From Bacteroidota bacterium (GTDB lineage: Bacteria; Bacteroidota; Bacteroidia; NS11-12g; UBA955): a DNA stretch of 64,000 nucleotides. Positions 29,045 to 36,933 of this stretch are shown piece after piece. Made by a program: the position numbers and the translations under genes. Every line of letters starts with the position of its first letter. Position 1 is the stretch's first letter. The stretch covers positions 4,821 to 68,820 of the forward strand of contig JAURFW010000001.1 in the NCBI GenBank assembly GCA_030834125.1. Direction: 5' to 3'. Under the pieces are notes generated by a model. The model saw only the letters and a program-made list of their open reading frames with translations, ran no database searches and was not told where the DNA came from.

Positions 29045-31105
29045 ATGAGAAACTTCTTTAAAAGAATAACGCTATTGAGTTTATTAATGGTCTTAAATTC
29101 AAGTATACTTCACTCTCAGGTCGCAAAAACACAAGTAGTAATGGCTGAAATTAAATTCGTGGATAATTCTATGAAATTAATTTGGGATATACCCACTGGA
29201 TTTTCAGGTACACATAGAATTTACAAAAGAAATCTATTTGATTGGGGTAAGAGTTTCAATTATGTTACGGAATTTGATCAAAACTTTTTTGAATATTCTC
29301 TAACATCGAGTGATGTAGAAACACCAACAGAATGGCTAATTAACAGAGTAGATGGATCGGGAAATATAATCTCACTGGGATATATTGCCAGTGTAAAAGA
29401 TTACAAGCCAGATATTAACCGTGGTTGGGTTCATTTATTAATTGATTCAACTTATGCTACACCTTTAAAAGATGAATTGGATGTTTTAATACTTGAATTA
29501 AGGGATTTGGGGCATTTTGTCACCTTTAATTATGCAAGCAGAAATTCTACTCCTACAGAGGTTAAAAACACCTTAATGGATTCAATCTATTCTAAATTGT
29601 CAAAGGCTGGCAAACCATTGGAATCAATTTATATAATTGGTCATGTACCCGTTCCTTATTCAGGTTATTTTTCTTCTACTGGGCATCGATATCCACCAGA
29701 TGGTCATGCAGAAGGTTCTGGAAATCATACTGGGGCTTGGCCAGCAGATTGTTTTTACGGTGATTTCGATGGATCTTGGACGGATACACGTGTAAGTTGT
29801 ACAACTGGAAACCAAGCTAGACATCATAATGAGCCCGGTGATGGTAAATTTGATGCTTCTGTTATTATAGGCACCGGAACTGAAGGAACATGGTCGCCAA
29901 TTGAGATTCAGGTTGGTAGAGTAGACTTTTTTAATATGCCTGCATTTTTAGAATCTGATACTTCCCTGTTAAAAGAATACTTACAAAGATGCTCAGATTG
30001 GAGAACTGGAAAGATTAAAGTAATCAAACGTGCTCTAATTGATAATAATTTCAGTTCTCTCAATCTGGCATCATCAGGATATCAAAACTTTCCTTGTTTT
30101 GTTGGTATTGATTCAGTATTTGATGATCGAGATTATTTTACGTTTCAAAATTCAGAGAATTATTTATGGAGTTATGGTTGTGGGGCTGGAAGCTATAAAA
30201 GTTGTAATGGAATAGGAACCACAAATGATTTCGCTAACAATAAGGGCAAATTTAGTAATGCGTTTACAATGTTAGCTGGTAGTTATTTTGGTGATTGGGA
30301 TTCTCAAAATAATTTACTTAGAGCAGCACTTGCAAGTGGATCTTTAGCTACTTTTTGGGGTGGAATTCCTAAATGGTATGTTCACCATATGGCTGTAGGT
30401 TCTAATATTGGACTTGGAGCTTGGTTAACAATGAATAATAATAATGAATACTTTAATGGTTTTTTCAATGGGTCAGCTCAAGGTATTCATATTGCGCTAA
30501 TCGGAGACCCTACCCTTACTCTTGCTCCGCCAAAGCCTGTATCAAATATAAAAATCTCTTCAATTAATGGTAAAGTTGAATTAAACTGGGATGCCCCTTC
30601 TGATGAACATATTGATTACTACAAAGTGTTCACATTGAAAGATGCTGCATTCAATAATTTTCAAATTGAACCTTTGAAACATAGTTCCGATGACGGAATT
30701 ACGGCAACTAACAGTTACACAGATAATGGAAATTGGGTATCAGGAAATTATAGATACGCAATATCAGCAGTTAGGATCGACACAACAGGATCAGGGTCTT
30801 ACCATAATTACAGCAAATTGACAATGGTTGAAGTTCAGCACACAAACTCTTTTGAGGCGATTTATGGAGAAACACTTCGAATTTTACCAAACCCTACCAG
30901 TGGTATACTTTTTATTGAATCTAATTGTCAAATTATTCGATACGAAATATTCGACATACTTGGAAGGCTTCAGATGCAGGGAGATTCTTTGGAAAAAGAT
31001 GCCTCAATTAAACTGAGTCCCAATATGATTGACGGTGTTTATCTTATCAACATTTATAGTGAAAACGGTTCAAAGACTTTAAAATTGGAATTAAGTAGGT
31101 CTTGA
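29045..31105 (+). CDS. T9SS-secreted protein with a peptidase-C25-like (gingipain-fold) region, an FN3 domain and a type-A CTD
   Basis: A signal peptide is present. IYIIGHVPVPY...ADCFYGDFDGSW...IQVGRVDF resembles the C25 N-terminal core. PPKPVSNIKISSINGKVELNWDAP is FN3-like. LRILPNPTSGILFIES...GVYLINIY is a T9SS tail. Confidence 0.5.
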   Translation: MRNFFKRITLLSLLMVLNSSILHSQVAKTQVVMAEIKFVDNSMKLIWDIPTGFSGTHRIYKRNLFDWGKSFNYVTEFDQNFFEYSLTSSDVETPTEWLINRVDGSGNIISLGYIASVKDYKPDINRGWVHLLIDSTYATPLKDELDVLILELRDLGHFVTFNYASRNSTPTEVKNTLMDSIYSKLSKAGKPLESIYIIGHVPVPYSGYFSSTGHRYPPDGHAEGSGNHTGAWPADCFYGDFDGSWTDTRVSCTTGNQARHHNEPGDGKFDASVIIGTGTEGTWSPIEIQVGRVDFFNMPAFLESDTSLLKEYLQRCSDWRTGKIKVIKRALIDNNFSSLNLASSGYQNFPCFVGIDSVFDDRDYFTFQNSENYLWSYGCGAGSYKSCNGIGTTNDFANNKGKFSNAFTMLAGSYFGDWDSQNNLLRAALASGSLATFWGGIPKWYVHHMAVGSNIGLGAWLTMNNNNEYFNGFFNGSAQGIHIALIGDPTLTLAPPKPVSNIKISSINGKVELNWDAPSDEHIDYYKVFTLKDAAFNNFQIEPLKHSSDDGITATNSYTDNGNWVSGNYRYAISAVRIDTTGSGSYHNYSKLTMVEVQHTNSFEAIYGETLRILPNPTSGILFIESNCQIIRYEIFDILGRLQMQGDSLEKDASIKLSPNMIDGVYLINIYSENGSKTLKLELSRS

Positions 31106-31206: not shown

Positions 31207-33627
31207 ATGAATAATAGTGTTGTTTATTTAGTTCCAGCATTAGGAGTACTTGGTCTTATCGTAATGGCCATTAAAAGTGCTTGGGTATCAAAACAAGATG
31301 CTGGGGACGAGAAAATGCAAAACCTTGCAGGAAAAATTGCTGCAGGAGCAATGGCTTTTCTAAAAGCCGAGTGGAAAGTGTTAACTTATTTTGCTGTAAT
31401 TGCAGCTGCATTGTTAGCATATACTGGAACAATCACTGAAGTTAATGGCAAAGAGATTCATTCTCATTGGATTATTTCCGTTGCTTTCTTGATTGGTGCA
31501 TTCTTTTCTGCGTTAGCAGGTTATTTCGGAATGCGTATTGCTACAAAAGCAAATGTTCGAACAACAAATGCGGCAAAAACTAGTTTATCTCAAGCATTAA
31601 AAGTAAGTTTCAACGGCGGAACTGTTATGGGATTAGGAGTTGCAGGCCTTGCAGTTCTTGGACTTGGCGGTTTATTCATTGTTTTCTACAATATGTTTGT
31701 TGCTGGAGCTGATGAAGCACTAAAAGATATTGAATTAAAAAGAGCAATTGAGGTATTAACTGGATTTAGTTTGGGTGCTGAATCAATTGCACTATTTGCT
31801 CGTGTTGGTGGTGGTATTTACACCAAGGCTGCTGACGTTGGAGCTGACTTGGTAGGAAAAGTAGAAGCAGGTATTCCCGAAGATGATCCACGTAATCCAG
31901 CTACTATTGCGGATAACGTGGGTGATAACGTGGGTGACGTTGCAGGCATGGGTGCTGATTTATTTGGTTCTTATGTTGCAACAATCCTAGCCACCATGGT
32001 ATTAGGATCAGAAATTAAAGTTACAGATAATTACGATGGTCTTTCTCCTGTATTATTGCCAATGGTAATCGCAGGATTGGGATTGGTGTTTTCAATAATT
32101 GGAACATGGTTTGTTCGTATTAAGAATGATAATGGTAATGTCCAAAACGCCCTAAATTTAGGAAACTGGGCAAGTATTGTATTAACTGCTATTGCTAGTT
32201 TTTTTGTAGTAGATTTATTGTTGCCAGAAACCCTTTCACTTCGTGGTGTTGAGTTTGCTAAATTGGATGTTTTCTATGCTATAATGGTTGGTCTTGTTGT
32301 AGGAGCAATTATGAGTATTGTAACAGAATACTATACTGCAATGGGTAAAAAGCCGGTTATGTCTATTGTTCAGAAATCTGCAACAGGTCATGCGACAAAT
32401 ATCATTGGTGGTTTAAGTGTAGGTATGGAATCTACAGTAATTCCAATTTTAGTTTTGGCTGGTGGTATTTATATGTCTTATGCTTTTGCTGGACTTTACG
32501 GTGTTGCCATTGCTGCTGCCGGAATGATGGCAACTACTGCAATGCAGTTAGCTATTGATGCATTTGGACCTATTGCGGATAACGCAGGTGGTATTGCTGA
32601 AATGAGTGAGTTACCCGAAGAGGTTCGTGGAAGAACAGATATTTTAGATGCTGTTGGAAATACTACTGCTGCTACTGGTAAGGGTTTTGCTATTGCATCT
32701 GCTGCATTAACTGCACTTGCTTTATTTGCTGCCTTTGTTGGTGTTGCAGGTATTGATAGTATCGATATTTATAAAGCAAAAGTTCTTGCTGGTTTATTCG
32801 TTGGTGCTATGATTCCATTTATTTTCTCTGCATTAGCAATTAGTGCTGTTGGTCGTGCTGCAATGGATATGGTAAAAGAGGTTCGTAGACAGTTTAAAGA
32901 GATTCCTGGTATTATGGAATACAAAGCTGAACCTGAGTATGAAAAGTGTGTTGAAATTTCCACGAAGGCCTCAATTCGTGAAATGCTTATGCCAGGCGCT
33001 ATTGCTCTGTTATCCCCTGTAATTGTAGGATTTGCTTTCGGACCTGAAGTATTAGGAGGTATGTTAGCAGGTATCACAGTTTCTGGCGTATTGATGGGAA
33101 TTTTCCAAAATAACGCCGGTGGTGCTTGGGATAACGCTAAAAAATCATTCGAAAAAGGTGTTGATATTGATGGAGAGACTTTTTACAAAGGATCTGAGCC
33201 TCATAAGGCATCTGTTACAGGAGATACAGTTGGTGATCCATTTAAAGATACTTCAGGACCATCAATGAATATCTTAATTAAGTTAACCTCAATAGTTTCA
33301 TTAATTATTGCTCCTTACATTGCTGTAGGAGGTGATGCTTGTGCTGAGGGTGATGATTGTTGCAAAGACAAGACAGAAATGACTTCAACGCTTAAAAATT
33401 CTGATAAACAATGTACAGCTAAATCAACTAATGAAGACGGAAGTTGTTGTGATATGTCAGAATGTGCAGGTTTAACCTTGGCAGAATGTATGAAGAAATG
33501 TGATGAAAAAGGTTGTTCTGATGCTCAAAGAGCTGAGTGTATCAAAATGTACGATAAAGATGGAAAGTACATTGGAAAGAAAGAAGAAAAAGCATGTTGT
33601 TCTGAGGAATCTGAAACAGTAAAATAA
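31207..33627 (+). CDS. hppA: Membrane-integral K+-dependent-type ion-pumping pyrophosphatase with an extra Cys-rich C-terminal tail
   Basis: DNVGDNVGD, GGIYTKAADVGADLVGK and DAVGNTTAATGKGFAI motifs. The Ala in GNTTAA marks the K+-dependent class. The 806-aa product has its last 99 aa beyond the conserved core. Confidence 0.92.
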   Translation: MNNSVVYLVPALGVLGLIVMAIKSAWVSKQDAGDEKMQNLAGKIAAGAMAFLKAEWKVLTYFAVIAAALLAYTGTITEVNGKEIHSHWIISVAFLIGAFFSALAGYFGMRIATKANVRTTNAAKTSLSQALKVSFNGGTVMGLGVAGLAVLGLGGLFIVFYNMFVAGADEALKDIELKRAIEVLTGFSLGAESIALFARVGGGIYTKAADVGADLVGKVEAGIPEDDPRNPATIADNVGDNVGDVAGMGADLFGSYVATILATMVLGSEIKVTDNYDGLSPVLLPMVIAGLGLVFSIIGTWFVRIKNDNGNVQNALNLGNWASIVLTAIASFFVVDLLLPETLSLRGVEFAKLDVFYAIMVGLVVGAIMSIVTEYYTAMGKKPVMSIVQKSATGHATNIIGGLSVGMESTVIPILVLAGGIYMSYAFAGLYGVAIAAAGMMATTAMQLAIDAFGPIADNAGGIAEMSELPEEVRGRTDILDAVGNTTAATGKGFAIASAALTALALFAAFVGVAGIDSIDIYKAKVLAGLFVGAMIPFIFSALAISAVGRAAMDMVKEVRRQFKEIPGIMEYKAEPEYEKCVEISTKASIREMLMPGAIALLSPVIVGFAFGPEVLGGMLAGITVSGVLMGIFQNNAGGAWDNAKKSFEKGVDIDGETFYKGSEPHKASVTGDTVGDPFKDTSGPSMNILIKLTSIVSLIIAPYIAVGGDACAEGDDCCKDKTEMTSTLKNSDKQCTAKSTNEDGSCCDMSECAGLTLAECMKKCDEKGCSDAQRAECIKMYDKDGKYIGKKEEKACCSEESETVK

Positions 33628-33644
33628 TATATTTTTCAAATAAC

Positions 33645-33675
33645 AAAAAAGGCCGAGCAATGCTCGGCCTTTTTT
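33645..33675. terminator. Bidirectional rho-independent terminator
   Basis: AAAAAA-GGCCGAG-CAATG-CTCGGCC-TTTTTT lies between the convergent hppA and the 1080-aa BNR gene. Confidence 0.85.
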
Positions 33676-33690
33676 GTTACTAAACTATGA

Positions 33691-36600
33691 CTAGTTCTCA
33701 ATCAATTTTAATTTATTATTTATTGATTTCCACTCATCATTTAAATTATCATACTTTGCAATAAAAGTTTTTACATACCTATTTACCTCATCAACTACAT
33801 TCATATGAGTTAAAGTGGGCGCTTCCATTGATCCCTTCATTTCCCAATAAACTTTTAATACATCCATTTTCATTGAACTATGTGTTTCAAATTCATATTT
33901 ACCAACAGGATCAGAGCCATTTATTTGAGTTAGAATATCGTTAATAGACTTCTGGATACTTACAATTTTATTGTAAACTTCAACATTATTTGAATTCCAA
34001 ACTTGATTTTCGATAACCCTAGTGGTTTTATTGAATAAATCTTCTAATCCATTGGAGATGAGCAGTAAATCTTTTCGGCTAGAATTGAGTTTTTTTAAAT
34101 TATCTATCCTCGCAACATTTTCTTGAATACTACGATGATTTTGTTGATACAAGTATTTTATTTCAATTGTATCAATAGAGGTATGGTTTCTTAATACTCC
34201 ATTATGAGAAATAGATATAACCTTCCAAATATATTTTCCTTCATTAACATAAGGACCTTTTAATTTATTAGCCAATTCGCCTTCCGACGATAATGCTGCA
34301 AATTCATAGCAAACATCCCACTTCGCGGAATTCCAACCTTTGGAAGGTGTAATTTCAATTTGACTTACAATATTTTCAGGATCTTCAAGACTGTATATAG
34401 AAATATAATATTTGTTTTTTATCTCCGTAGATTCAGCTCTTATTGAATCCATGGAAGGATATATAAAATCCTGTCCTTTTGCTTCATTCTCACGTTTTTT
34501 TCTTCTCTTTTCTATATCAGTAATATCGTTATCAATAAAATATCTTAAAGTTAGTTTTTCATCAAGATTATCACCTCTGAATCTAGAAGCACCCTTAAAA
34601 CCATTTCCTGCTCTCCCAAGTTTATTATATGGAATGAATAACTTATGAGTATTATCTGCAATTGTATTGCTTTTTGATTTTTTATACTCTCTAATCAGAC
34701 CATAATCATCACAAACTAAAAATCCTCTTCCAAAAGTTGCTAATACTAAATCATCTTCTCTTTCTTGATAAACAATATCTTTAATCGCAACGGGTGGTAA
34801 ACCTTTCATGAACTTATGGAAGTGAACCCCACCATCAACTGAAATGTACAATCCAAATTCTGTACCTACGGTTATTATATCTTCGTCAATAGGATCAATT
34901 AATATTGATTTTGCCGGCTGATTTTCTGGTATCCCCTTTCCAATTCTCTCCCATTTTCCATTTGTATATTTAACAACAAATGCATCAAATATACCTTGTC
35001 GATGATGATCTAGTACTGCAAATATTTCATTTTTAGTATTTATTTGAATTCCACTAACAAAAGGATAAATTTCAAATTCTGCATTTTTCTTAGATTTTAA
35101 TTCAATTTGTTCGACCCAGTTAGGTACATCCTTGTAAGTTCCATTTCCTATTAATTCCCAATTTTCACCATCATCTTCGGTAATGTATATTAAACCATCG
35201 TCTGTTCCAGCAACAAGTTGCCCTTTTTTACCTTCAACTAAATATGTAATGTTGCCATATATACTTGTACTTTTATTTTTAGCCACAGCATCTAACCCCC
35301 ATATTTTACCCATTACTGGAAATTCATTACGGTCAACAGAACGTGATAAATCTTTACTTATCACATTCCAAGAATTCCCTTTATCATTTGATGCGAATAC
35401 CCGATTAGCAGCGAAATACAACTTATTGTTATCGTATTTTGATATGAGCAATGGTGCATCCCAATTCCAACGAAGTGGCTTTTCTTTTCTTGAAATACTA
35501 GGCTTAATATCTACAGCTTCACCAGTTGTTCTGTTATATCTTATTAAACCTCCATATTGCCATTGGCTGTAAACAATAGTAGAATCTTTTGGATCAATTT
35601 GAGATTTAAATCCATCTCCACCCACTGTAACATACCATTCTTCATTTGTTATTCCATTGTCCGTATTGTTCCTACTTGGACCACCTAAAGAATAATTATC
35701 CTGAGTACCTCCATATACATGGTAAAAAGGATGACTATTATCAACACTTACCCTGTAAAATTGAGTCACTGGAATATTTTCTTTGAAATTCCAATTTTCA
35801 CCGTAATCAAAAGTCTCGTACAATCCCCCATCACAACCTACTAATAAGTGCTTATAATCGTTTGGGTCAATCCAAATAGTATGATTGTCAACATGTTTAA
35901 ATTTTTCTGAAAAACGCGAAATAGTTTTTCCCCCATCTTCTGAAAAATGAAGATAGGTATCCATGAAAAATAATCGATTTCCATTTTTTGGATCTGCATA
36001 AACTTCTTGATAATAATTTCCAGATGTTTGATAATCATTTGTTTTATTCCAGCTAGCTCCATAATCTGTAGATTTATAAACACCGCCCTTTTTACCTTCG
36101 GCCTCAATAATGGCTATTATATTACCTTCTTTAGTTTCGCTACATTCAATTGATATTCTTCCTAAATCGCCAGATGGGAATCCGTTACCAACTTTATTCC
36201 ATGTTTTCCCATTATCTACTGATTTATATAGAGCAGATTCAGGACCTCCTCCTAAGTATGTAAATTCATGTCTTCTTCTCTGATGTGCTGCTGCATATAA
36301 TATTTTTGAATTATATGGATCAATGTGTATTTCATTGAAACCTGTATTCTCAGAAACAGAAAATGCTTTTTCCCAAGTTTTACCACAATCTACCGTGTGG
36401 TAGATTCCTCTATCTCCCCCTTTGCCCCATACATTTCCATAAGCTGCAACCCATATTTCATTTGTATTTTCTTGATTTATTGTAATCATTCCAACGCTAT
36501 ATGATTCCCTTAATCCCATATTTTTAAAAGTCTTTCCTCCATCTTCACTTAAATAAATACCATTTCCATAACCAACACTGCGCTGATTATTGTTTTCACC

Positions 36601-36933
36601 AGTTCCAACCCAAACCCTATTAGGGTTTACCGGATCAATTGCCAAACAACCGATACTGAGAGTACCATATTTGTCAAAAATTGGTTCGTATGTGGTTCCT
36701 GAATTTTCTGTTTTCCAGACACCTCCGTAAGCTGATGCTACATAATATTCACTGTGGTTTTTAGGATTAACTGCAATATCCACAATACGGCCTGAAGTTG
36801 TTGCAGGGCCAATGAATCTAAATGGGATTTGAGATACAAATTGTTGCATTCCCGTATCTTTTTGCGCATTTGATGTATTCAATAATGACAAAAAGACTAA
36901 TAGTAAACTGATTGATTGTATTGGTTTCTTCAT
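33691..36933 (-). CDS. Secreted sortilin/VPS10-like BNR (Asp-box) double-propeller protein
   Basis: A signal peptide is present. Nine SxDxGxxW/F boxes occur (SEDGGKTF, TVDCGKTW, SVDNGKTW, STDYGASW, SEDGGKTI, TFDYGENW, SNDKGNSW, TEDDGENW, SVDGGVHF). The C-terminal ~300 aa look helical and no T9SS tail was seen. Confidence 0.75.
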   Translation of the reverse strand: MKKPIQSISLLLVFLSLLNTSNAQKDTGMQQFVSQIPFRFIGPATTSGRIVDIAVNPKNHSEYYVASAYGGVWKTENSGTTYEPIFDKYGTLSIGCLAIDPVNPNRVWVGTGENNNQRSVGYGNGIYLSEDGGKTFKNMGLRESYSVGMITINQENTNEIWVAAYGNVWGKGGDRGIYHTVDCGKTWEKAFSVSENTGFNEIHIDPYNSKILYAAAHQRRRHEFTYLGGGPESALYKSVDNGKTWNKVGNGFPSGDLGRISIECSETKEGNIIAIIEAEGKKGGVYKSTDYGASWNKTNDYQTSGNYYQEVYADPKNGNRLFFMDTYLHFSEDGGKTISRFSEKFKHVDNHTIWIDPNDYKHLLVGCDGGLYETFDYGENWNFKENIPVTQFYRVSVDNSHPFYHVYGGTQDNYSLGGPSRNNTDNGITNEEWYVTVGGDGFKSQIDPKDSTIVYSQWQYGGLIRYNRTTGEAVDIKPSISRKEKPLRWNWDAPLLISKYDNNKLYFAANRVFASNDKGNSWNVISKDLSRSVDRNEFPVMGKIWGLDAVAKNKSTSIYGNITYLVEGKKGQLVAGTDDGLIYITEDDGENWELIGNGTYKDVPNWVEQIELKSKKNAEFEIYPFVSGIQINTKNEIFAVLDHHRQGIFDAFVVKYTNGKWERIGKGIPENQPAKSILIDPIDEDIITVGTEFGLYISVDGGVHFHKFMKGLPPVAIKDIVYQEREDDLVLATFGRGFLVCDDYGLIREYKKSKSNTIADNTHKLFIPYNKLGRAGNGFKGASRFRGDNLDEKLTLRYFIDNDITDIEKRRKKRENEAKGQDFIYPSMDSIRAESTEIKNKYYISIYSLEDPENIVSQIEITPSKGWNSAKWDVCYEFAALSSEGELANKLKGPYVNEGKYIWKVISISHNGVLRNHTSIDTIEIKYLYQQNHRSIQENVARIDNLKKLNSSRKDLLLISNGLEDLFNKTTRVIENQVWNSNNVEVYNKIVSIQKSINDILTQINGSDPVGKYEFETHSSMKMDVLKVYWEMKGSMEAPTLTHMNVVDEVNRYVKTFIAKYDNLNDEWKSINNKLKLIEN

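Follow-up and report, generated by a model that had tools for sequence, protein, structure and literature searches.

What is a cysteine-rich tail doing at the end of a membrane-integral pyrophosphatase (PPase)? The question is raised by an hppA-like gene in a 64,000-nucleotide stretch of DNA from a Bacteroidota bacterium (assembly GCA_030834125.1, contig JAURFW010000001.1, positions 4,821 to 68,820 of the forward strand; hereafter the window), whose 806-residue product ends in an extension with 13 cysteines (Table 1). Membrane PPases count as minimal ion pumps made of one polypeptide, and no regulatory domain has been described on them in the literature and databases that we searched. We find that the core of the extension is a 43-residue module with six near-invariant cysteines, which recurs on PPases across several lineages of the phylum and constitutes a previously uncatalogued domain family, and that the tail as a whole may act as a thiol- or metal-binding appendage in the periplasm.

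Translation of 33328-33624 bears out what an earlier note on this DNA had described, namely an in-frame extension of 99 residues with 13 cysteines and three vicinal cysteine (CC) pairs: the open reading frame (ORF) runs on directly from ...LIIAPYIAV to the stop codon, and the pairs lie at tail positions 11-12, 40-41 and 90-91. The sixteenth transmembrane helix (TM16) ends and the tail begins about 17 residues past the gate lysine K16.50, 15 hydrophobic residues after the segment SMNILIKL. From there a linker with a vicinal CC leads into the folded six-cysteine module, which is followed by a second linker with another CC pair. The tail gave no Pfam match at E<=1 and no NCBIfam match to metallothionein or to the DUF326/Csp families; the same Pfam scan found no OmpA domain (PF00691) in it, which sets the protein apart from the mPPase/OmpA type.

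Could the cysteine richness be a matter of chance, or the extension an artefact that arose from an overlooked stop or frameshift, from chimeric assembly, or from misjoining of a small ORF to the PPase gene? The first observation speaks to chance, the others to an artefact: 1) at the window's background cysteine frequency of 1.2% the probability of at least 13 cysteines in 99 residues is 2.5e-10, and a cysteine density as high as that of the tail is reached by only two of 2002 long open frames genome-wide, the PPase and one other. 2) A word-indexed search with residues 706-806 recovered eight PPase clusters of 806-837 residues, drawn from independent assemblies (NCBI, ENA, JGI and Logan), that keep the tail in frame down to 59% identity, and 91 further PPase ORFs preserve this frame. 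3) The ratio of nonsynonymous to synonymous substitution (dN/dS) in the tail is 0.02-0.06 among three congeners (L087-L089), at dS 0.4-1.8, and 0.28-0.40 between these and the window lineage (the window and L091), where the core stands at 0.04-0.07 within an overall core range of 0.003-0.07; judged by these ratios, the tail changes faster than the core yet is clearly constrained. 4) A contig from a public sequencing run (X2), which may be the window's own source sample, is identical to the window over 33150-33700, the other public-run matches to the stretch being only short pieces of the conserved core. 5) Directly after the stop codon lies a hairpin of -28.1 kcal/mol (z = -8.63; none of 200 shuffles folds equally well), overlooked by a simple terminator scan, which is probably a bidirectional intrinsic terminator. 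On the other side stand the rare standalone homologues P0051, P0026 and P0028, and two module-bearing database proteins that look like assembly or gene-calling chimeras and not true fusions, P0023 joining a module-bearing PPase tail to a fragment of a major facilitator superfamily (MFS) transporter and P0045 joining one to an asparagine-synthase-like N-terminus. However, no standalone relative turned up when proteins of 54-173 residues were searched with just the tail. With the conserved frame, the selection, the terminator and the matching contig in hand, an artefact is effectively refuted and we give it next to no credence. The idea, also in the earlier note, of a fused former small ORF falls with it as far as annotation is concerned; as an evolutionary fusion it is possible, given the rare standalone homologues.

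The module is defined by the spacing C-x4-C-x7-C-x3-C-x4-C-x7-C followed by MYDxDGKxIG, with the consensus C-D-M-x-x-C-A-x-[ML]-T-x-x-E-C-x-x-x-C-D-x-x-G-C-[ST]-x-x-[EQ]-K-x-x-C-x-x-M-Y-x-x-D-G-K-[YFW]-I-G. Its architecture is that of two C-x4-C-x7-C half-repeats with an x3 joint and a closing Y-D-x-D-G-K-aromatic-I-G hairpin or turn motif. We defined the family as proteins with CD...C..MT.EEC...CD..GC[ST]..[EQ]K..C, usually then [YF]-x-x-[DN]-G-K-aromatic-[IV]-G, located after TM16 in a PPase sequence, and the window's module conforms to this definition. It is single-copy in its own genome, where the family profile, built from ten sequences that include the window's, finds it with 95.5 bits (E=4.5e-27); in the two most distant of the eight clusters that share the tail the module is duplicated. 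In the best loci, which yielded 93 unique modules, five cysteines are invariant and the sixth is kept in 92. In divergent representatives the second cysteine is the only one commonly replaced, by methionine in five cases and by serine and valine in one each (n=7), and a degenerate copy, P0062, has lost both the fifth and the sixth. The conserved methionine at module position 11 is a leucine in the window lineage.

AlphaFold, run with an alignment of 86 tails, gave a predicted local distance difference test (pLDDT) score of about 85 in the module and about 40 in the rest of the tail; run on the module alone with 88 sequences it gave 83. In this second model residues 5-8, 13-23 and 27-34 of the module are helical, and a bridge of two residues fits a hairpin. 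The module is thus predicted to be a small domain of three helices and a hairpin, and the flanking CC-bearing linkers are predicted to be disordered. Foldseek searches of the PDB returned nothing significant, a comparison of the module profile with PDB sequences gave no significant match, and neither Pfam (2025) nor NCBIfam (2026) has a model for the module. The top Foldseek hit was an EF-hand of polycystin-2 (E=1.4-1.9), and one could read the helix and loop ending in YDKDGKYIG as an EF-hand-like Ca2+ site and the module as a periplasmic calcium sensor. A weak profile match to troponin C (E of about 0.7-1) and the polycystin-2 hit itself, the only structural match (E=1.9, TM-score 0.49), lean that way. 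But none of these matches is significant, all having E>=0.7, and the 12-residue DxDxDG..I..E loop with conserved ligands is not present: the loop is one residue short of the canonical DxDxDG..I....E, its first aspartate is a glycine in 44 of the 93 modules, and its fifth position is an invariant lysine. We therefore reject an EF-hand identity, and regard a calcium sensor of this kind as very improbable.

How widely is the module distributed? The earlier note had suggested surveying orthologues and searching for the cysteine pattern with hidden Markov models (HMMs), and the tail proves not to be peculiar to one genome. A profile scan of one genome per prokaryote species recovered 244 module loci, so that the core of the tail recurs in at least 244 species genomes. 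Nearly all are labelled Bacteroidota (Flavobacteriales, Crocinitomicaceae, Flavobacterium and Chitinophagales), either isolates or metagenome-assembled genomes (MAGs), and a few stand under other record labels, as deposited (Klebsiella, Akkermansia, Limnohabitans). In the loci kept, all 92 module-bearing ORFs are C-terminal tails of PPases: 91 have the PPase core or TM16 in frame, and the remaining one is a fragment at a contig start that begins with APILG. One copy is present in 56 tails and two in 36. When 1.84 billion representatives were searched exhaustively with the HMM, 68 matched, and most of the 34 examined are C-terminal PPase fragments on short contigs. A few forms stand alone: P0051 (139 residues) has a lipoprotein signal peptide and lies whole within its contig, and P0026 and P0028 are small proteins anchored in the membrane. 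Of 25 genomes in the genus of the window, 19 carry the module; among the other six, three were examined, two being without a detectable PPase and one having its PPase gene cut at a contig end, and the remaining three are only 69-77% complete. Of 401 high-quality Bacteroidota genomes, sampled evenly from the phylum, 392 encode a PPase, and 11, from three of 179 genera, have the module. Its distribution across the phylum is patchy and, in the data examined, it is almost confined to the PPase tails of several Bacteroidota lineages.

The tails around the module have a composition of their own. The 86 unique tails of our family set, which reach 68-244 residues past TM16, consist of 15.5% lysine, 12.6% cysteine, 10.7% glutamate and 8.6% methionine, against a methionine background of 2.3% in the long ORFs of the window, and many have histidine-rich ends; the window's tail, with four methionines and no histidine, is a lean version. 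CC occurs in 84 of them, CxxxC in all 86 and CxxC in only three, and 37 (43%) have an odd total of cysteines. The typical order is TM16, a vicinal CC with ..TEM, a variable linker with cysteine, methionine and sometimes histidine, and one or two modules, often closed by a second CC and a lysine- or histidine-rich end. The membrane-proximal motif, a CC followed by ..TEM or ..EM and lying 10-20 residues past TM16, is found in most module-bearing tails and also in five of 11 tails of PPases without the module, whereas a CC inside the final 15 residues occurs in 42 of the 86 tails, often as ..CCKKK or ..CCKGH. The linkers around the module, such as CEGEMMECTEMHEGC, are often low-complexity sequences rich in cysteine, methionine and histidine.

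PPases of the phylum that lack the module are also tailed, and variably so, with open frames of 689-912 residues (stop to stop, which overestimates gene length). The 11 such tails that we compared include other cysteine-rich sequences, a histidine/methionine repeat, acidic low-complexity sequence and an OmpA-like domain, and this variety makes the PPase C-terminus look like a hot spot for periplasmic add-ons, of which the six-cysteine domain is one recurrent and well-conserved type. The repeat, HHQEMHGEMHGEMHNQMHG, closes the tail of locus L096 (genome G034) and resembles those of periplasmic copper-binding proteins; on sequence likeness, this points to more than one origin of metal-binding-like tails on the pump.

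The pump that carries the tail is ordinary. It matches PF03030 (H_PPase) with 894.5 bits against a curated cut-off of 29.7 (E=6.3e-269), over profile positions 1-645, which makes it a full-length member of the membrane-integral pyrophosphatases; NCBIfam model NF001955 gives 1266 bits (cut-off 1059), its match extending to residue 731, and the alignment with the H+-PPase of V. radiata (VrPPase, 4a01) has E=1.3e-171. Read by eye against VrPPase, the core has the K+-dependent motif GNTTAA (in GNTTAATGKG), with alanine and not lysine; GAES (residues 188-191) aligns with GGSS, placing a glutamate at 5.43; and GSYVATIL of TM6 aligns with GSYAESSC, leaving no glutamate at 6.53 or 6.57. By the subfamily rule, in which E5.43 is significant (PMC10897367), this is the combination of the F. 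johnsoniae type, and the core is accordingly predicted to be a K+-dependent H+ pump. NF001955, the best NCBIfam model for the core, bears the name 'sodium-translocating pyrophosphatase'; with Glu 5.43, GNTTAA and no glutamate at 6.53 or 6.57, this automatic name is probably wrong on the pumped ion.

On which side of the membrane does the tail lie? Solved membrane PPases have 16 transmembrane helices; their hydrolytic centre is cytoplasmic, the exit channel is periplasmic or lumenal, and TM16 contributes the gate residues N/D16.46 and K16.50 (PMC5150537). The window's PPase aligns end to end with two such structures, 4a01 and 4av3, and its N16.46 and K16.50 fall within SMNILIKL, shortly before the tail. 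From this alignment we infer 16 helices with both termini non-cytoplasmic, and since SMNILIKL and the 15 hydrophobic residues that precede the tail complete such an architecture, the tail should exit on the periplasmic face, beside the point where the ion exit channel of this homodimer opens. The non-cytoplasmic position proposed in the earlier note is supported from three further sides: the PPase of locus L079 (3845-4597) has an OmpA domain (PF00691, E=5e-23) after its six-cysteine module; OmpA-like ends occur on L093 (genome G066) and in its genus, also in genomes G250 and G310, with open frames of 909-912 residues; and the standalone homologue P0051 is a lipoprotein. The window's genome (G000) also encodes, outside the window (contig C6, about 34.5 kb, + strand), a 120-residue ORF with a clear signal peptide, MKKFIILSIVAFGFATVSFAQ, whose lysine-rich mature part repeats ..SCCKK.. 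and ..DCCKKK.. and resembles both the linkers of the PPase tails and P0026; it has no Pfam match. This secreted CCKK-rich protein lends further support to a periplasmic tail.

What, then, might the tail do there? We propose that its cysteine thiolates, joined in the relatives by methionine and histidine, would serve as ligands for soft metals, Cu(I) or Zn(II) for example. Metal would stabilise the fold of the small module, the flexible CC linkers would provide additional sites, and the tail would form a membrane-tethered periplasmic metal-binding or thiol-buffering element on the pump. Three considerations favour such thiolate chemistry. Cysteine, methionine and histidine are enriched together, and the linkers and sister tails look like metal sites. 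Odd cysteine counts are common in the family, the second cysteine gives way to methionine in five of seven cases, and CxxC is rare. Finally, periplasmic disulfide machinery was not detected and exported proteins have no bias towards even cysteine counts: Pfam searches of the window's 98%-complete genome found no DsbB, no VKOR and no DsbA of the Thioredoxin_4 type, and VKOR was likewise not detected in congeners and in genus g4; the sole DSBA-family ORF (C14:86824-87399; L108:325-900, - strand), which starts with MKIEIWSDILCPFC, has no signal peptide; and an even count is found in 47.3% of predicted exported and 47.1% of cytoplasmic proteins. This lineage may form disulfides in its periplasm by a non-canonical route, or not at all. 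Metal binding by the tail is plausible on these grounds. We put the chance that the thiols serve as a metal- or thiol-binding site for soft metals just short of even, and hold the whole account to be an even call: a real tail, kept by selection and lying in the periplasm, on a K+-dependent Glu-5.43 membrane PPase, with a metal/thiol mechanism.

A number of points weigh against the metal-binding proposal. The evidence that Dsb genes are missing comes from Pfam searches of a single MAG, and the parity test, which used a crude home-made signal-peptide rule and no positive-control genome, is only suggestive. No known metal-binding family matches the tail by Pfam or NCBIfam, PDB sequence or Foldseek comparison, nor do seven richer tails match one by Pfam at E<=1. 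The window's own tail is the least rich in methionine and histidine of the family, and the leucine at module position 11 suggests that some module methionines are plain hydrophobic core. The gene neighbours, a type IX secretion system (T9SS) cargo protein and a BNR/sortilin-like protein, have no link with metal homeostasis. Moreover, a generic metal module would be expected on many proteins, and near-exclusivity to PPases hints at a pump-specific role. Six near-invariant cysteines in a compact helical mini-domain are also the classic signature of three disulfides. The module could be held by disulfides only, as a rigid periplasmic spacer, a dimer clasp or a docking site for a partner in the periplasm or cell wall. 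The confidently predicted 43-residue fold, the periplasmic location and the restriction to PPases would all suit a structural role of this kind, as would the structural domains, OmpA-like or weakly Big_1-like, that stand at the same position in other lineages; the joint loss of the fifth and sixth cysteines in P0062 is what a bonded pair would show, and the exchange at position 11 is the behaviour of a core residue. However, the second cysteine is lost alone, mostly to methionine, which would strand an unpaired partner, 43% of the tails have odd totals, DsbB, VKOR and an exported DsbA went undetected in the window's genome or genus, and methionine and histidine are strongly co-enriched in the relatives. 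We regard a disulfide-only domain as a serious but rather unlikely explanation.

Another view, which takes up the earlier note's suggestion of a coupling of pump activity to redox state or metal availability and could be combined with either of these, would make the tail a redox- or metal-responsive lid, cysteine oxidation or metal loading opening or occluding the exit channel or altering the asymmetry of the dimer. TM16, which bears the gate residues, leads to the exit channel (PMC5150537), the tail starts a short distance past K16.50, and the module is nearly restricted to PPases, all of which would fit a lid. However, the linker between TM16 and the module, at about 40 residues, is predicted to be disordered and is highly variable in length and sequence, which disfavours a precise lid geometry; many related PPases also have quite different or short tails. 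A lid thus seems improbable to us. We give a similarly small chance to the related idea that module and CC linkers form a periplasmic thiol/metal sensor at the mouth of the exit channel, through which pumping would be gated by redox state or by copper or zinc load, or from which expelled protons would release thiolate-bound metal.

Small cysteine-rich proteins that invite comparison with the tail include the metallothioneins of the SmtA/BmtA type, Csp1 and CopG-like cysteine proteins, which have high cysteine contents, CC and CxxxC motifs, cysteines on short helices and variable copy number and length. The tail family is like them in its cysteine motifs, in its disorder outside a small core and in the methionine and histidine enrichment of the window's relatives. 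It differs in giving no sequence or fold match (at E<=1, none by Pfam or NCBIfam for the window's tail and none by Pfam for the seven richer tails), in a cysteine content of about 13% and not 20-30%, in its conserved aromatic residues and in its fusion to an ion pump, and its metal binding is putative. The N-terminal domains of P1B-ATPases and the histidine-rich loops of CDF and ZIP transporters are cytoplasmic and serve the transported metal; the PPase tail is likewise a flexible, thiol- or imidazole-rich terminal extension of a polytopic transporter, but the pump acts on pyrophosphate (PPi) and H+, and its extension lies in the periplasm. The CHCH proteins with twin CX3C/CX9C motifs and the Euplotes pheromones share with the module a length of about 40 residues, three short helices and six cysteines, whereas the spacing of the module is x4, x7, x3, x4, x7 and its profile match to Er-10 is non-significant (E=0.39).

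Among the PPases themselves the nearest known system is the K+-dependent H+-translocating enzyme of the F. johnsoniae type (Luoto et al. 2011, discussed in PMC10897367), which agrees with the window's in its core (alanine in GNTTAA, Glu 5.43, no glutamate at 6.53 or 6.57) and in host phylum; the published work consulted deals with core and ion selectivity and is silent on a cysteine-rich tail, and the likeness concerns the cores. A 2024 review notes that some membrane PPases have C-terminal extensions and describes an OmpA-like domain in Paucibacter and other Burkholderiales, leaving its role open; the word cysteine is absent from it and Flavobacterium goes unmentioned (PMC11210485). The OmpA-tailed enzymes resemble the window's in having a periplasmic domain after TM16, and L079 combines both types, but the folded unit of the window's tail is the cysteine module, which matches no known family. 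The earlier note knew of no such tail on an ion-pumping PPase, and the databases and literature agree: neither Pfam nor NCBIfam models it, and the literature that we searched has nothing on cysteine-rich PPase tails, the OmpA-like extension being the only published one found. With an ordinary core, that sole precedent and no existing model for the module, the window's enzyme is a pump of known kind that bears, on its periplasmic side, a conserved accessory domain not described before. Should this domain bind metal, membrane-tethered metal-binding elements of a new class would exist in the periplasm of abundant freshwater and estuarine bacteria; should it modulate the pump, it would offer a first handle on regulation from outside the membrane; and should it be a sensor, no regulatory domain would have preceded it on any membrane PPase, and its small fold, dependent on metal or redox state, would be new. 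The module, being small and having a fold predicted with good confidence, is readily testable.

Table 1. Features of the hppA-like gene and its surroundings (positions in the window)
Feature	Position	Strand	Basis or remark
hppA-like gene, 806-aa membrane-integral pyrophosphatase including tail and stop codon	31207..33627	+	ORF, PF03030, NF001955, 4a01 alignment
Conserved PPase core, residues 14-701	31246..33309	+	Pfam match limits
C-terminal tail, 99 aa, residues 708-806, 13 Cys, 15% Lys, 23% Asp+Glu, no hydrophobic segment	33328..33624	+	
Membrane-proximal vicinal-Cys motif CCKDKTEM, residues 718-725	33358..33381	+	Recurs across tails; inside the reach of NF001955
Six-Cys module CDMSECAGLTLAECMKKCDEKGCSDAQRAECIKMYDKDGKYIG, residues 748-790	33448..33576	+	Invariant columns, profile, AlphaFold
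C-terminal vicinal Cys pair (KACCSEE), residues 797-798	33595..33600	+	CC at ends of related tails
Perfect 18-bp GC-rich hairpin, A-run on one side, T-run on the other	33641..33679	.	Between the convergent PPase and BNR-repeat genes
686-aa secreted protein	29045-31105		Flank of the PPase gene; counterpart in L091 has a T9SS Por_Secre_tail
Convergent 1080-aa BNR-repeat/sortilin-like protein	33691-36933		Other flank of the PPase gene

The synteny of the flanks is the same in a close relative (GCA_038153365.1) and includes no metal-linked gene, and the neighbourhoods of the window's gene, of this relative's and of two standalone homologues gave no functional clue. Other add-ons were met on PPases of the set. 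At the extreme C-terminus of nine of them (L009, L030, L032, L039, L045, L049, L052, L058 and L075) is a second cysteine block of the form C-M-x-G-C-x-x-G-C-x-[ST]-K-x-E-C-x-x-x-C-G-x-x-C-x-K-x-H (e.g. ...CMEGCTHGCxTKEECxKxCGExCAKxH), which is distinct from the six-cysteine module and has no Pfam match. Bacteroidota PPases with a peptidoglycan-binding OmpA-like end present the oddity of a pump that generates proton motive force being tethered to the cell wall, an arrangement with published examples from Burkholderiales alone (PMC11210485). In L008, L033, L035, L047, L048 and L065, which are of the Flavobacterium type, and in L102, the module is followed by an alpha/beta unit of about 45 residues with the pattern ...V(K/R)VEM..NGK.KATVTT....Q.FEGT..EV.AK(V/I)(D/E)ALK and a weak match to Big_1 (E=0.002), which appears to be another uncatalogued periplasmic mini-domain.

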